This document shows, in pieces, positions 2,989-51,698 of a stretch of 64,000 bases of DNA. Within the stretch, counting starts at the first letter, position 1, and the number at the start of each line of letters is the position of its first letter. Origin of the DNA: an uncultured Bacillaceae bacterium (lineage in GTDB: Bacteria > Bacillota > Bacilli > Bacillales > DSM-1321); assembly GCA_963790055.1 (NCBI GenBank), contig CAWBND010000006.1:1416-65415 (forward strand), written 5' to 3'. The notes below the pieces were generated by a model that worked only from the letters and a program-made list of their open reading frames with translations, was not told the DNA's origin and made no database searches. The position numbers were made by a program, and so were the translations under genes.

Positions 2989-3915
2989 TTACAGATTACT
3001 TAACTTACTTAAAAAGTCATTTAGCTCCTCTTCTTTCTTAAATTTAAAAGCGTAGCCAAAATTAGTTGGTGTTTTTCCATTTTTTATGCCCTTAGGGAAA
3101 CGTCGTAATGCCGTACTATGGCTTGGTTCATCGGAAATTTCAAAATTTTTCTTAGCCGTATCTGGATGTAGCACAATGGTTAGTAGCTTATTAGGAAGTA
3201 GGTATATGATCTCTTTATTAATCGTATGTTCAAATTCTGCAGCTTTTTTCGTTTTATTCGTTAACACAAAACCATTTTCGGTAAATATTCGATGAATATC
3301 TTCACTTATAGTCATTGTTTTAACGCCAGCGTTCGGCGTTTCATTTGTCACCTCATTTTGCCCCCTTTCTTTTTCCACTCTGATATCATCAAGTTGCTGC
3401 TTAACCTCTGCCCACATTTCATCGAGTTTTTTATCTAAATAAGGTTTAATTACGTCATCCATGTCCTCCACTTTCAATGCATTTGCTTCTGAAGCAACAG
3501 GGAGTTTATATACCGGGGCCTCAAAATTATAGGTTACGTATACCTGCATATACCAAACGCTGATTTCAAAGAGAAACTTATGAGCCTGTAGCGCGTCGGC
3601 AACTTCCACTTCCGTCACATTATGTGCCGCTTTATTCCCTTTTTTTCGAATCCATTCCAACTTCATATAAATCTCTTCCTCAATCGCATTCTGACGATAT
3701 AATTTATGTATTTTCTCAGCATGCTTAAGTGGATAGACAACCTCCAACTCTTCTTCTTTGCTCATTAACTTCACAAGGTGCTCACTATATAAACGGGCCT
3801 GCATCAATGACGCATGGGGCTCACTAAACATTTTATCTTCTATACGTTGAGCAAGGTCTGCTAAATCGGTAGAGAATTGCTGAACAAACTCAAATAAAAA
3901 CGCCATCTTTCCCAC
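2989..3915 (-). CDS. DUF4145-like protein (resembles HsdR N-terminal region) with an extra C-terminal domain
   Basis: ASLMQARLYSE...IRKKGNKAAH pattern. Confidence 0.7.
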   Translation of the reverse strand: MGKMAFLFEFVQQFSTDLADLAQRIEDKMFSEPHASLMQARLYSEHLVKLMSKEEELEVVYPLKHAEKIHKLYRQNAIEEEIYMKLEWIRKKGNKAAHNVTEVEVADALQAHKFLFEISVWYMQVYVTYNFEAPVYKLPVASEANALKVEDMDDVIKPYLDKKLDEMWAEVKQQLDDIRVEKERGQNEVTNETPNAGVKTMTISEDIHRIFTENGFVLTNKTKKAAEFEHTINKEIIYLLPNKLLTIVLHPDTAKKNFEISDEPSHSTALRRFPKGIKNGKTPTNFGYAFKFKKEEELNDFLSKLSNL

Positions 3916-4758: not shown

Positions 4759-4832
4759 GTGGTCCCAGAAATTTTCTGAGACCACTAAATCTATCTTATC
4801 AACGTTATTTTAGCTGCGCACTCCACGTGGCT
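4759..4832 (-). repeat. Orphan rlmD/rumA 3'-end copy B (SHVECAAKITLIR*) plus terminator; att-like site
   Basis: Direct repeat of 4032-4106, 726 bp away, with a near-identical terminator. Confidence 0.7.
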
Positions 4833-4887
4833 TGTACGAGTCGTCTTTGATGAACAAAAGTTACACCGTCGATTTCAAATCATGCCA

Positions 4888-6174
4888 TTATCTTACATCA
4901 TCAAGAGATTTCGCCACTGTGTGAGCAATTGGTTTCCATTCAACGTCCTTAAACAGGGCTACAACAGCAATAGGTATATAGGTAAACATAAAAAGCGGAA
5001 AAGTGATTGTATAAGCGATTTTTTTCCAGCTAGAACAATGAATTTTTTTCCACTCCGTCAAGGTTGTAATGAAACCAAGAATAAACAGTATCCCATAATA
5101 CCAGACAACAGATTTTAACATCGCCATAGTGGTTACATGAATCATTTCTTTTCCACCAAATAATTCAAAAATACCAGCTAAGTAGAAGAATCCATTCACC
5201 ACAATGCTGATACTAGAAATAAGCATGGCTGGCATAATCGTCATGGTCATATCGTAACATGAAAACCTGTTACGCTTTCTTCGAAAAATACTACTAACCA
5301 AATCTCTTCCGTATTTAGCAAACACCTGGTAAAATCCCTTCGCCCAACGTAATCGCTGATGCCAGGACTGGCCGAAGGTGACTGGTTGCTCGTCATAGAA
5401 TATGGCGTTTCTGCAGTATCCGATCTTTTCGCCTTTAATAATCTGAGAAACGGAAAACTCAATGTCTTCTGTAAGAAGATGGTGAGTCCAACCTCCATTT
5501 TCTTTGATCAAATCAGCATGTACTAGAAATCCTGTTCCAGAAATGGCACAACTAGTGTGAAGAAACATTCTTGGAAGGTTAAGATATTCAGCTTCATGCA
5601 GGAACCAGAGTGCATAACCTGCAGAAATCCAATTCTGGTCATAGTTCTTGGAGTTTCTATAACTAGTGATTACTCTGTAGCCCTGATTAAAGGTCTTGTT
5701 CATCTCCACTATATAATTCTCATCAAGAAGATTGTCAGCATCAAATACAAAATATCCTTCATACTTTCTGGATGAATATTCCTTTTCGATGATATGTATC
5801 ATATAGTCGAGGGCATAGCCCTTTCCAATCTGATTTTTATTGAAGCGCTCCCTGACAATAGCCCCAGCTTGCTCTGCAACTCGGGCTGTATTGTCCGAAC
5901 AGTTGTCTGCTACAACGAAAATATCAATCAATTCCTTGGGATACTTCTGGTTTTTTATACTTTTGATCAGTTGTTCGATAACGAGTTCTTCATTTCGAGC
6001 TGCGATGATCACTGCGTATCTATAGGGATGAACAGTCTGCATCCCAGGATTTTTGGTCTTTTTGACCTTAAATGAAACAAACATGTATACCATCTGATAC
6101 GAATACATCAATGCAAATAATAGGAACATAAGAAAATTAAAATTAGTAATAAAAGTTGATATATGCGAGTCCAA
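4888..6174 (-). CDS. Membrane glycosyltransferase family 2 (processive-type motifs)
   Basis: DAD, TED and QRLRW motifs; TM helices at both ends. Confidence 0.9.
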   Translation of the reverse strand: MDSHISTFITNFNFLMFLLFALMYSYQMVYMFVSFKVKKTKNPGMQTVHPYRYAVIIAARNEELVIEQLIKSIKNQKYPKELIDIFVVADNCSDNTARVAEQAGAIVRERFNKNQIGKGYALDYMIHIIEKEYSSRKYEGYFVFDADNLLDENYIVEMNKTFNQGYRVITSYRNSKNYDQNWISAGYALWFLHEAEYLNLPRMFLHTSCAISGTGFLVHADLIKENGGWTHHLLTEDIEFSVSQIIKGEKIGYCRNAIFYDEQPVTFGQSWHQRLRWAKGFYQVFAKYGRDLVSSIFRRKRNRFSCYDMTMTIMPAMLISSISIVVNGFFYLAGIFELFGGKEMIHVTTMAMLKSVVWYYGILFILGFITTLTEWKKIHCSSWKKIAYTITFPLFMFTYIPIAVVALFKDVEWKPIAHTVAKSLDDVR

Positions 6175-6519: not shown

Positions 6520-9500
6520 CTATTTTATTAATTGAAAAGGTAAAGCCTGAACATCCTGGCTACTCGAACCGATGTACGCAACAAATGCACCCGGATCACT
6601 TTTATATTGTAAATCTGAATGATGATAGCGCAACTGCTCCTCTGTAATGGCGAAAGAGATTGTTCTTGTTTCTCCAGGGTGCAACATCACCTTTTCGAAG
6701 CCTTTCAATTCTTTCAATGGACGAACGACTTCCCCGACTACATCTTGAATATAGAGTTGAACAATTTCCTCTCCTGATACATCCCCGTCATTTGTTACAT
6801 CAACAGAGATGGTTAAAGGAGTTTCAGCCGTCATTATTCCATAGGATAGCTTTGCATTTTTATATGAAAAAGTTGTGTAGCTTAAGCCAAATCCAAATAG
6901 AAATAAAGGTTCATTTGGAATATCCAAGTACTTAGAAACATACTTCTCCTCTGCATTGAGCGCGTTTTTAGGACGGCCTGTGTGAAAGTGATTGTAGTAA
7001 ACAGGGATCTGACCAACGGAATATGGAAAAGACATACTTAATTTGGCAGATGGATTCTTATCACCGAACAAGAGATCAGCAATCGCTGCTCCACCCTCAA
7101 TTCCTGGAAACCAAGCTTCAAGAATGGCATCTACTTCATCACAGACACCGTGAAGGTCCAGTGGACGTCCATTAAAAAGAACCGCTATCATGGACTTATT
7201 CGCCTTCTTTAATTTTTTAATTAAATCAAGTTGAACCTGTGGCAAGCAGATATCCGCTCTGCTTGCCGCTTCCCCGCTCATCTCGGAGTTTTCCCCGAGT
7301 GCAAGCACAATGACATCGGCTTCTTCAGCTGTCTTCAGGGCTGTATTTTGCTGTTCGATTGTTCCAGCTTCAATTCCGCAACCCTCCGCATAAAGAAGAG
7401 AATGGGCCCCCACTTTTTCTATAAGTCCATCATATAACGGCACAGCCTCTTCTTTTGAACCCAGCCAAGACCAAGGTCCCAAGATATCATGGTTCTTCGC
7501 AAACGGACCAATAACGGCAATCTTCAGGTCCTTTTGAAGCGGGAGGATATGATTTTTATTTTGTAAAAGGACGATCGATTTAGTCGCTATCTCCCGAGAT
7601 ATTTCACGATGATGTTTGCTCATAATGATTTTTTTCTCTAACTCTTCATCTGCACCACGATAAGGATTTTCAAATAAACCCAGTTTGAATTTTAGTCTTA
7701 AAATTCGGAGTACGGCTTCATCGATCAGTGCTTCATCAACCACTCTCATAGATACTAACCAGGCTAGATACTTGACATAAGCTGCGGTCATCATCTCGAT
7801 ATCAACACCGGCTGTAATGGCTTTATAGGCAGCTTCAGCCTCATCAGCTGCTACTCCGTGTGGAATAAGCTCCTTCACAGATCCCCAATCAGAAATCACG
7901 ACTCCGTCAAAACCCCATTCATCCCGAAGTAACCCGCGCAAAAGCTTTCGGTTCCCAGTGACAGGAATACCGTTAACCGTGTTAAACGAAGCCATGACCA
8001 TTTCAGCACCTTCATCAATAGCAGCCTTATATGCAGGTAAGTAATACTCCCGCAGCTGTCGTTCTGACATATCAACTGTATTATAATCACGTCCTCCTTC
8101 AGAAGCTCCATAGGCGGCAAAGTGCTTTACGCAGGCTGCCAACCGGTACAGATCTTTCTCGAGCTCTGGACCTTGGAATCCACGGACAAAAGCTTTCGCA
8201 AATTGGCTATTTAAATAAGGATCCTCTCCAGTTGACTCCATCACCCTTCCCCAACGCGGATCTCGGACTAAATCAACCATCGGTGCGAACGTAACATGGA
8301 TACCGGATACGGATGCTTCCAAGGCAGCAATCTGGGCACTCTTTTCAGCAAGATCCAAATCCCATGAACATCCTATTGCCAAAGGAATAGGAAAAATGGT
8401 CTTAAAACCATGAACAATATCAGCCATAAATAATAATGGAATACCGAGCCGATTGTTCTTAAGATGTGTTTCCTGAATATTTATAATCTCCTTAGCACCT
8501 GAAGCACCAATGACAGAACCGCTGTTTTGAACGATTTTTTCACTAATACCTAATTCAGTCATTGGACCCGTCATGTTACTTTTATCGTTTGAACCTTCAT
8601 AGAAACCGGAAACTAATTGAATTAATTGAGCGATTTTTTCATCCAATGTCATCTGTTTAAGCAAACATTTAAGCTTTTCTTCACTCATTCTCTTTCCAAT
8701 GTACGTTTCAAGAAAGTCAGCCACCTGAGAGTAAGCATATATCTGACTTTCCAATTTTACTAACTTATGCCCCTCCTCTTTGATTCGGATATACGTAACA
8801 GGATGATTTCGCTTCTTCAGTTTATTCACAATCTGCTCTGATTCTTTAATTGGAACACGCGGGTCATTAACTCCATGAATCACCATAAGGGGAGATGTGA
8901 TGTTATCCGCATGATTCAGAGGATCAATTCGTTCAAAAAATTCCCCATCTTTTTCAATCGTTCCATATTCATCCTCTCTAAGCTTCTTCCGCCAAGGACT
9001 TGTTGTTTTTAGGAACGTTCGTAGACTTGATATTCCTACGATATCGACGGCAGCCGCCCACAAATGAGGATAGTGACTAATAGCCAAAAGAACCATAAAT
9101 CCACCATAGCTGCCTCCCATAACCGCTATCTTACTACCATCAACATTCATATCTTCTTTAAGCCATTCCACTAAAGAAATAAGATCTTTCACAGCATCCA
9201 TGCGTTTACGAACATCATCTAAATGGGTATACGTTTTTCCGTAGCCTGTACTGCCGCGAACATTGGGAGTTACCACTGCATAGCCGAGATGTAGAAAATA
9301 TTGCAAAAGAGGGTTGTAAGTAGCACGACTTTGACTTTCCGGTCCACCATGAATATATACGACAACAGGATGTTTCTCAGCCGCAGATGTCGGTTTATAG
9401 TAAAAAGCAGGTATTTGAAGATTGTCAAAAGAACGAAAGAATATTTGTGTAGGCTCCATTAATTTTCCCTCAAGCACGGGGAGGCGAGAAGTATATGTAA

Positions 9501-44799: not shown

Positions 44800-45051
44800 T
44801 CAGTGGAGGCCACTCAACTTTTCATCCACTTGCTGGCAGACCTCGTCAGCTGTTAACCCGTGTGCAGCAATAACCGAACCTTGTGTGGATGCATTTTGGA
44901 TACCTAGTACATCCTTATCCAACCCCGTAATTACACAGCAATCTAGCCCCTGTGCGTCTGACTCTTGTTTCAGTTCTACAATGTCATACCCTTTTGCGCG
45001 CAAAGCGGCCTGTACATTCGTTAATGATTGCTCAACACCAATTCTTGACAT
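44800..45051 (-). CDS. YkuS (UPF0180) family protein
   Basis: [25 protein letters not shown]. Confidence 0.88.
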
Positions 45052-45058
45052 ACTAACA

Positions 45059-45191
45059 CCGTTGCCAAAAACTTATAAAAATCTATAAGCCTTGTTTGCT
45101 TCTTGCTTCTACCTGTCCGATTTTGCCAGAGCTACTTTCGTTTGCTGTGACAGTCCACAAGCGTAAATTCGGATACAACGAATCCTACATA
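45059..45191 (-). ncRNA. TnpB omega/reRNA-like scaffold (IS607 type), copy 1
   Basis: TATGTA-hairpin-GAATTTACGCTTGTGGA...GTAGC...GGACA...GAAGCAAGAA, homologous to 50715-50862. Confidence 0.65.
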
Positions 45192-45231
45192 GTTGAGTTT
45201 TCTTGTAAGATGAAAGTTCTCAACTCTTTAT

Positions 45232-45328
45232 CTGACTTGGTTTTCGTCGATTTTTATTCCTATACACCCTCACGATTCTACTCGATGACTACACCACTTT
45301 CGCAATGTATGGGATTCATAATAGGCAT
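45232..45328 (-). ncRNA. Unidentified conserved structured RNA module, copy 1
   Basis: Helices with compensatory changes relative to 50934-51035. Confidence 0.65.
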
Positions 45329-45520
45329 ACTCATTTTACCAAATTTACAGATAACAAACAAGTGAATTGACTAACGGAGTTCACCTCCTTATAATAGTTT
45401 ATAGATATTTCTTAACTGTTTTTCCCCTCCTCAATGCTAATTTACCCAATTCCACCATTTTCTATTTATGCAAATACTGAAAAAGCCAACTCCCATTATA
45501 AAGAGTTGGCTTACAAATCA

Positions 45521-50714: not shown

Positions 50715-50862
50715 CTGCTACTAAAAACATAATCAAATGTAATCATCTGACTATGCCAGACGGTTTCCTGCTTCAACGTGTCCCGTCTCGCCAATTGCTC
50801 GCTACTACGGTTGGTATAACACTCCACAGGCGTAAATTCCGATGTAGCCCACCGTACACATA
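50715..50862 (-). ncRNA. TnpB omega/reRNA-like scaffold (IS607 type), copy 2
   Basis: Homologous to 45059-45191 with covarying hairpins. Confidence 0.65.
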
Positions 50863-50933
50863 TACAGATTAGTTAAGTTAATGTGTATATCTTCGTCCGT
50901 TAGTAGACTCTCCTTTCGTTAGATTTTTCAATT

Positions 50934-51035
50934 CCGCTTGATTTTCGCATTTAGGCACAATGTAGGCGACCATCACGGTTCTATCCGATGCAACCGTCAC
51001 TTTCGCAACGTCTTGGCACATTCACAACCTACACC
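50934..51035 (-). ncRNA. Unidentified conserved structured RNA module, copy 2
   Basis: Homologous to 45232-45328. Confidence 0.65.
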
Positions 51036-51698
51036 TCTGAAACGTTTGAATAGACTTAATGCAATTTTTTATCCTTTCACTTTTTACACCAGTGAAAAAG
51101 TAAAGTATAAAAAATCCTTTTCATTTGAGCGAAACGTAATCATTACGAACCGATATAGTGAAAAAAATCTACATCTATTATAACATATCTACATCCAACT
51201 ATTACAGAAATACGTTTGGAGTAATTTTTTAACCTACACCTAAAACAACGAAAGCCCTACCTCTCTTTCATCCATACGGTTCCTAGACCGCGCCTGTAAG
51301 AATCAGGTTAAAAAACAGGAAGCACATGTTTATTAAAACTAATCTTTCCTACTGTAACTCTAAATGAAAATTAAAATTAAAGAAAAGGGTACGAAGAAAT
51401 TTATGAAGATTATTTGTGGAGAAATAAAAATCTTTCTTAGTGCTTATGCATGGATAAGCCGCGCTCTTAATAAAAATGTTACTTTATAAAAAATCACTCT
51501 TCAATGAATCCTTTAAAACCATTCAGATACTATCTTATCATATAATTTACAATATGTAAATATTTTTCAAAACTATACCATCTAGCTCTGCTGATTTTTT
51601 GTTTATTCGTGTAAATTCATAATTTCACATAAATAAACAAAAAATTGAATATATAACATAGGTTTTATAAAAAAATAAAGAGGTGATGGACTCACCTC

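Follow-up and report, generated by a model that had tools for sequence, protein, structure and literature searches.

On the minus strand of the window, the 64,000-nucleotide stretch of DNA analysed here, a corA-like gene runs to 45521, with a terminator-like hairpin behind it; ~470 nt further on, at 45051, the next ORF starts. This ORF (44800..45051, minus strand) is intact and encodes an 83-aa UPF0180 (ykuS-like) protein (Pfam PF03698, E=1.6e-29), and it has lost its Shine-Dalgarno sequence (SD): what is left is ...ACGG|TG, 7 nt before the ATG. The locus thus raises the question of what separated the gene from its ribosome-binding site, and what kind of sequence now fills the space. The original prediction had answered it with an ORF-less IS607 element, pointing to an AAGGAGG at 45384-45390 (minus strand) and to the UPF0180/ykuS-like ATG at 45051, both of which are present as described.

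Boundaries and empty sites of the insertion

In two congeners (G016 and G018), the orthologous corA-ykuS spacer reads ...GAGGAGG|TGTAACCTTATTATG and ...GAGGAGG|TGGAAGTATG, respectively, and the occupied site in the window reads GAGGAGG[367 bp]TGTTAGTATG. Since the empty alleles run from GAGGAGG directly through TG to the ATG, the insertion is 45059-45425 on the minus strand, from GGAAAAACAG... to ...TTGGCAACGG, a 367-bp element absent at this locus in relatives. By the same alleles, the split SD of the UPF0180 gene is the host GAGGAGG at 45426..45432 (minus strand), which forms the left flank of the element and carries a TAM-like motif. An insertion exactly within an SD, with a GG core and no duplication, had been proposed, and is backed by these empty alleles, whose existence in relatives had also been anticipated and which are precise at the orthologous locus in both congeners. 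The position of the split SD had been placed differently: the AAGGAGG at 45384-45390 lies 36-42 nt inside the element, as it does in all four ORF-less copies of the genome. Consequently, the GG(TG) on both sides of the predicted 325-bp interval holds, but its left boundary does not, as 35-42 nt of the left end had been missed.

The assembly of the same genome (16 contigs, 62% completeness) contains three full ORF-less copies of 367, 388 and 365 bp, which are 77-86% identical, and one internally deleted ORF-less copy of 149 bp. The four precede four different genes, and empty sites were found for all of them. These are exact at AGGAGG|TG for the window copy and the copy on contig C14, and at AAGGAGG|GA for that on C16. 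The congeners read AAAAGGAGG|TGCTTG... at the C14 site, where the two flank alignments overlap by exactly GG (2 nt), AAAAAAGGAGG|GAACG... at the C16 site, and ...AAAAGGAGGTATAGCATG at the site of the ORF-less copy on C1, whose left flank is partly rearranged. A short GG core, no target-site duplication, a precise empty site and several copies at different loci are all as in the IS607 family.

Three observations on the surrounding DNA are recorded here in their own right. The spacer between the corA-like gene and the element (45433-45500, minus strand) shares conserved GCATA/ACATA ... CATnnTA-like boxes with the orthologous spacers in L009 and L010; by eye, they resemble forespore sigma-F/G promoters. 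Elsewhere in the window, a SAM-I riboswitch lies at 2650-2752 on the minus strand (Rfam, 68.6 bits, above the gathering score). Just upstream of the mini-copy on C16 (L006, reverse strand, query 135-422), there is a very abundant repeat of ~150-290 bp, with dozens of copies in G062 and G018, which is unrelated to the IS607 element.

Ends, family membership and target choice

The last 131 nt of the element (45059..45189, minus strand) comprise a TnpB guide-RNA (omega/reRNA) scaffold and the right end. RAGATH-18 (Rfam RF03064) matches in full length at 45100-45161(-) with 69.1 bits (E=4e-13, gathering score 44.9), in agreement with the proposal that the 3' half is a TnpB right-end RNA. RAGATH-18 has been described as the core of the ~185-nt reRNA of IS607-family TnpBs (Ren et al. 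2024, PMC11061315). Two tnpB-only copies are also present in the genome; their right ends are 90% and 87% identical to that of the window copy, and these last ~134 nt are all that they have in common with the ORF-less copies. The TnpB encoded by the copy on C1 (373 aa) aligns over its full length with ISFba1 TnpB (PDB 8IAZ, E=1.5e-79), including the three RuvC acidic motifs. The ISFba1 reRNA takes its guide from the 20 nt on the 3' side of the scaffold (Ren et al. 2024, PMC11061315), and by analogy the predicted 20-nt guide of the window element would be TGTTAGTATGTCAAGAATTG (45039..45058, minus strand), which spans the host start codon.

The outer left end (45391..45425, minus strand) carries the motifs AACAGTTA ... 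ATCTATAAA, which are common to the tnpB-only copy on C1 and to an IS607 remnant on a B. cereus plasmid that bears the 5' part of tnpA (L102 about 3128-3170). The left-end motif is therefore shared with both tnpB- and tnpA-bearing relatives. The element itself has no ORF of at least 90 aa on either strand, the longest being an 89-aa ORF on the opposite strand, and tblastn searches of its 5' half with three TnpBs for a coding remnant returned noise only. As the serine-recombinase TnpA is not encoded either, the element was filed as non-autonomous. It carries every testable mark of a non-autonomous IS607 derivative except the genes themselves. We conclude that the 367-bp element at 45059-45425 (minus strand) is an ORF-less, non-autonomous IS607-family transposon derivative, with a RAGATH-18 right end and a left end common to gene-bearing relatives, much as had been suggested.

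A search for an autonomous copy with tnpA/tnpB had been suggested as a check. Relatives bearing tnpB are present in the genome; for tnpA, the assembled 62% of the genome yielded no intact IS607 gene, and contig C13 carries a truncated remnant only (L174:1462-1779), in which 105 aa cover a MerR-like helix-turn-helix and the start of the serine-recombinase domain before a premature end. A resolvase match on contig C4 was rejected as IS607 tnpA, since it is an ordinary frameshifted resolvase/invertase-type gene. In the congener G024, a tnpA-like frame adjoins tnpB and RAGATH-18. As a separate observation, the tnpB-only element on C1 contains a small ribbon-helix-helix gene between its left end and tnpB, divergent from tnpB and on the opposite strand (G000 contig C1 ~7290-7450; L004x 1790-1950). 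A B. thuringiensis plasmid carries the same pairing in its annotation (L101:1599-1766), and the gene may be a conserved regulator of this TnpB lineage.

Next to the outer left end lies the internal SD-like AAGGAGG (45384..45390, minus strand), with an inner GGAGG|TGA boundary that is found in all four ORF-less copies. In 4/4 copies, GGAGGTGAA stands 36-60 nt from the left end and is followed by CCGTTAGYCAA, an inverted repeat of the right terminus TTGGCAACGG. In the window copy, this inner inverted repeat, read directly, is CCGTTAGTCAA (45367..45377, minus strand). Complementarity between the inner repeat and the right end is perfect in L138 and L156, and both arms are changed in L144 (CGTTACC / GGTAACG). 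In metagenome relatives of low GC content, (GAGG)TGA(A/C)CTGTTG... comes directly after the host GGAGG and corresponds to the inner boundary of the window copy, so that the predicted 325-bp unit keeps some meaning. Two origins of the AAGGAGG fit these data: either an ancestral 325-bp unit nested into an SD inside a canonical IS607 left end and was later mobilised together with the outer left end, or the motif is a retained tnpA SD. A strong promoter-like TTGACT-17-TATAAT, built from these bases read on the other strand (45367..45395, plus strand; 11/12 matches in a consensus scan), faces outward through the left end. The first bases of the predicted interval, GAACTCC, had been thought to pair back on the SD (GGAG/CUCC); this fold-back is probably due to chance, because it is present only in the window copy, the other copies reading GAAACC.

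We then considered the target sites of the whole clade. A set of 19 independent right ends from the genus and G081, in which copies from kin are not fully independent, contained two types, ...TTGGCAACGG| (type 1) and ...TAGTAGCAG| (type 2). The start codon of an ORF of at least 50 aa was found 0-11 nt past the right end in 18 of the 19, for 1.5-kb tnpB-bearing and ORF-less copies alike. Where left flanks could be defined, they were GGAGG, GGGAGG or GGGGG in type 1 and AAAGGAG in type 2, so that the flanks of other copies conform to the expected pattern of a GGAGG-like motif on the left and a start codon a few nucleotides to the right. In most of the metagenome copies, too, the right end is followed by a start codon, at a distance of 1-11 nt. 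The downstream genes are mutually unrelated; they encode, among others, a class A PBP, DUF3792, SSB, a 2-hydroxyacid dehydrogenase, Uma2, clostripain, an adenylosuccinate-synthetase-like protein, a GlgC-like protein and an FMN reductase. Genome-wide, the share of sites followed by such a start is 42% for AGGAGG, 24% for AGGAG and 56% for AAAGGAGG. At least 17 out of 19 would arise with a probability of 2.5e-5 if p=0.42, and of 1.5e-3 if p=0.55; the signal is partly survivorship. This enrichment suggests either that an insertion is tolerated better in an SD than within a gene, or that more than 6 nt make up the target.

For RAGATH-18-associated IS607 TnpBs, the TAM was AGGAG in 18 of 22 strains with active TnpBs and GAGGG in the other 4 (PMC11061315). 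The targeting of SDs can be explained by the TAMs of this clade being themselves SD-like (AGGAG, GAGGG; GGAGG), and the proposal that the SD would serve as TAM and target at the window locus agrees with the published motifs. In effect, the RAGATH-18 branch of IS607 is a transposon specific for Shine-Dalgarno sequences, with the SD as its predicted TAM and the start-codon region as its predicted guide, and nearly every copy parts a gene from its ribosome-binding site. The TAMs are on record in the searchable literature, where we did not find a statement that RAGATH-18 IS607 elements sit in SDs.

A structured RNA module in place of the genes

The window element resembles ISFba1-type IS607 (PMC11061315; PDB 8IAZ) in its full RAGATH-18 right-end scaffold, in the close homology of a TnpB of the same genome to ISFba1 TnpB, in a G-rich SD-like left flank reminiscent of the TAMs AGGAG/GAGGG (PMC11061315), and in a core, GG in type 1 and AG in type 2, that equals the last bases of the published TAMs; the SD-like TAM of the present clade is itself predicted from flanks. 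It differs in that tnpA and tnpB are absent, and ~190 nt of non-coding sequence take their place, comprising a structured module that is conserved and a site resembling a promoter.

The module (45227..45332, minus strand; covariance model R1, 120.6 bits) is a structured RNA of ~100 nt, in which a closing stem P1 is combined with a three-way junction P2-P3-P4 (GNRA loop, RUAGAA loop) and a hairpin P5 with a GAAAAYCAA loop. Between module and scaffold, a linker hairpin GAGTTGAG...CTCAAC is predicted from folding (45192..45226, minus strand), and a hairpin was read by eye at the linker position of the other ORF-less copies. A first alignment of four sequences gave the three-way junction, with compensatory changes in 7 of 17 predicted pairs. 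Searching the same genome with R1 returned only the four aligned copies; there were no matches in five close relatives, and genome G081, from another family of the order, gave one. A 23-base pattern derived from invariant positions then yielded 36 metagenome loci. Over all 41 R1 hits (25 distinct), 94.6% of cells are paired and 15 of 25 pairs show compensatory changes, in an alignment fitted to R1, which favours structure; the slide control is nevertheless far off, with a covariation score of 0.36 for the module versus 0.04-0.10 for slid partners, and none of 500 shuffles was as good. Weak R1 matches in L108, L109 and L110 (21-30 bits) lacked RAGATH-18 in their vicinity and were regarded as noise.

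RAGATH-18 lies 60-130 nt downstream of the module on the same strand in 16 of the 18 loci scanned, the two exceptions being a contig end and a disrupted copy. The module was seen only in ORF-less copies, and no ORF lies between it and RAGATH-18 in any of them. In one metagenome locus (L164 ~4800-5192), an unrelated insertion of ~250 nt before P5 interrupts the module and the RAGATH-18 part is degraded, an example of family decay. In other collections, a pattern from the P5-hairpin region found only chance matches in unrelated phyla among genome contigs, plasmids and phages yielded the right end and not the 5' half, and a pattern scan of viral contigs gave no match.

Known RNA classes did not account for the module. 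A cmscan of 45040-45440 with all Rfam 15 families at E<=10 returned only RAGATH-18 and two noise hits, so that a known riboswitch was rejected for the 5' half. For group I introns, there was no Rfam match at E<=1 over 2.5 kb or at E<=10 over 45040-45440, and identity with an IStron was rejected, as the defining intron was not found. Self-cleaving ribozymes (hammerhead, twister, twister-sister, pistol, hatchet, HDV-like) gave no covariance-model match to the module, and the strands of its three-way junction (0-1 nt) are too short for a hammerhead core. The fold of the whole transcript has a z of -1.4, an uninformative value.

A promoter-like TTGTTT-17-TAAAAT with an extended -10 TG (45333..45361, minus strand) precedes the module, with a start predicted just before it; the site failed a stricter consensus scan. 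In most type-1 copies, a -10-like hexamer (TAAAAT, TATAAT or GATAAT) abuts the 5' side of the module, often with a -35 like TTGNTT at 16-18 nt, and no obvious promoter was seen in type-2 copies. The conserved -10-like box right before the module suggests that the module may be the 5' end of the element's own transcript. Most likely, it serves this RNA (5' stability, processing or TnpB loading) and not the repair of the host mRNA.

Two further elements carry the module. A second, diverged ORF-less element in the window (~50715-51070, minus strand) ends in the type ...TAGTAGCAG| and has both RAGATH-18 (50765-50830(-), 65.8 bits) and the same 5' module (50928-51038); its empty site in the closest relative, G062, reads ...TCTAAGGAG|TGAGATGAATG. 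The left end and the host SD have been deleted, and the module, the scaffold and the intact downstream ORF have been kept; it is thus an immobile fossil before an intact ORF. Beside it, a BsrC sRNA was noted on the plus strand (51235-51321; Rfam, 87.4 bits, above the gathering score). In G081, an ORF-less type-2 element (L111:1456-1816) is inserted at AAAGGAG|G, between the stop of pcrA and the start of ligA, which suggests that the element is tolerated before an essential gene. The ligA gene is single-copy and shows frameshifts at homopolymer runs, which are probably assembly errors and weaken its value as proof of a harmless SD insertion. No cognate RAGATH-18-linked TnpB was found in G081, where the best homologue is 30% identical and not beside RAGATH-18; persistence of the element is therefore not always TnpB-dependent.

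Maintenance of the element and its place among gene-less transposons

Taken together, these data make it probable that the element is a guide-RNA-only mini-transposon that hitch-hikes on the IS607 TnpA/TnpB machinery. By homology, an IS607 TnpA acting in trans would have inserted it at the GG of GAGGAGG|TG in the UPF0180 SD, where it may affect translation of the host gene. Transcription from the internal promoter would yield an RNA made up of the ~100-nt module, the hairpin, the TnpB scaffold and a ~20-nt guide from the host flank, and TnpB from a tnpB-only copy elsewhere in the genome could, again judging by homology, load this RNA. After excision, TnpB would cut the restored site, which offers both the TAM and a match to the guide, and sister-chromosome recombination following the cut would reinstate the element. 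Against this reading, the assembled 62% of the genome offers the C13 remnant in place of an intact tnpA. Moreover, the full copies differ by 14-23%, yet the closest relative, with flanks 91-96% identical, is without them, a pattern at odds with a simple recent burst. The strong conservation of the 5' module is also left unexplained by a pure hitch-hiker model.

The module could also be a new functional RNA class defining a distinct lineage of guide-RNA-only IS607 parasites, a reading that we hold to be rather unlikely. One possibility under it is a small ribozyme or RNA device that would let the element sit in the SD of even essential genes (ligA, ssb) with their expression preserved; another is a TnpB-capturing domain through which a gene-less element could outcompete the nuclease's own guide RNA.

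Neutralisation at the RNA level, where the element would be spliced, processed or looped out so that the SD is brought beside the start codon, is in our view improbable. Removal could rely on the 5' module, through a novel activity in self-splicing or processing that is not of the group I kind, or the inverted-repeat ends could pair and loop the element out; either way, the host GAGGAGG or the internal AAGGAGG would come to lie near the start and the gene would stay translated. IS607-type IStrons provide a precedent for stealth of this kind (PMC4227781; bioRxiv 10.1101/2023.11.20.567912). The ends are indeed complementary (CCGTTAGTCAA versus TTGGCAACGG, and AAUAUCUAUAAAC versus GCUUAUAGAUUUU), as is expected anyway of transposase-binding inverted repeats, and SD insertions exceed the expectation from motif frequency, which fits better tolerance than at intragenic AGGAGG sites. 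However, 1.5-kb tnpB-bearing relatives without the module occupy SDs equally often. Every copy examined has an intact downstream ORF; the SSB gene and the single-copy ligA of G081 are among these, the latter example being weakened by its probable homopolymer assembly errors. The splicing put forward in the original prediction found no support: Rfam group I introns and self-cleaving ribozymes gave no match at E<=10, no CCUCC-like, anti-SD-like internal guide was seen by eye, and the host flank ends in G and not in U, which is typical at group I 5' splice sites. In addition, a transcript starting at the module from the promoter-like site would lack the upstream exon and the SD.

That same promoter-like site, present 5' of the module in most type-1 copies, could also mean that the element has been exapted as an expression cassette and is no longer, or not only, selfish: its promoter and structured leader would drive or regulate the downstream gene, with a sensing or stabilising role for the module. 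From the module to the host start codon there is no terminator, module conservation is typical of functional RNAs, and the second window copy has kept module, scaffold and an intact ORF after losing its left end and SD. We nevertheless doubt this explanation strongly, as the downstream genes are unrelated, which argues against a common regulatory logic, the closest relative is without the insertions, and the full scaffold, needless for a mere leader, has been kept with scores equal to those of tnpB-linked copies. Finally, a native conserved leader or riboswitch of the ykuS-like gene, to which the 5' untranslated position and the structure would be suited, can be dismissed, since the orthologous loci in G016 and G018 are precisely without the element and the same sequence precedes unrelated genes.

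Returning to the guide-RNA-only mini-transposon, its nearest counterparts are IS607-type IStrons and gene-less IS200/IS605 elements. With IStrons (PMC4227781; bioRxiv 10.1101/2023.11.20.567912), it shares IS607 ends, a GG-containing target, a structured RNA in the left part and a guide RNA in the right part, as well as the natural occurrence of ORF-less derivatives, such as the ORF-less BcISt1 copies derived from group B IStrons (Tourasse et al. 2014, PMC4227781). In contrast to IStrons, its left RNA is ~100 nt long, has no group I match and apparently stands behind its own promoter; the TAM of CboIStron is TGGG and not SD-like (Zedaveinyte et al., bioRxiv 10.1101/2023.11.20.567912). In the part of their paper considered here, Meers et al. 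(2023, PMC10055086) discuss ORF-less IS605 elements whose guide RNAs are used in trans. These PATE-like elements are likewise gene-less, retain both ends and a guide RNA, and rely on the TnpA/TnpB of other copies; they differ in their Y1 transposase, single-stranded hairpin ends and TA-rich TAM, and that part of the paper reports no extra conserved RNA domain for them (PMC10055086). An ORF-less, guide-RNA-bearing transposon derivative is therefore of a known kind, and what is new here is the conserved 5' module, its promoter-like site and the systematic location in SDs.

Among RAGATH-18 RNAs, 64% adjoin an IS607 tnpB, and the other 36% were left undescribed in the same study (PMC11061315). We did not find the question of how hosts tolerate insertions that split SDs raised in the searchable literature. 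The gene-less lineage is widespread, occurring in the genome studied here, in one other family of the order and at 36 metagenome loci, and in it a strongly covarying, unclassified RNA domain replaces both genes upstream of the guide RNA. The module can be regarded as a concrete candidate for a functional RNA that is new and associated with RNA-guided nucleases, and the lineage, on the reading that we consider probable, would provide the IS607 family with an example from nature of a hitch-hiker made of guide RNA only.
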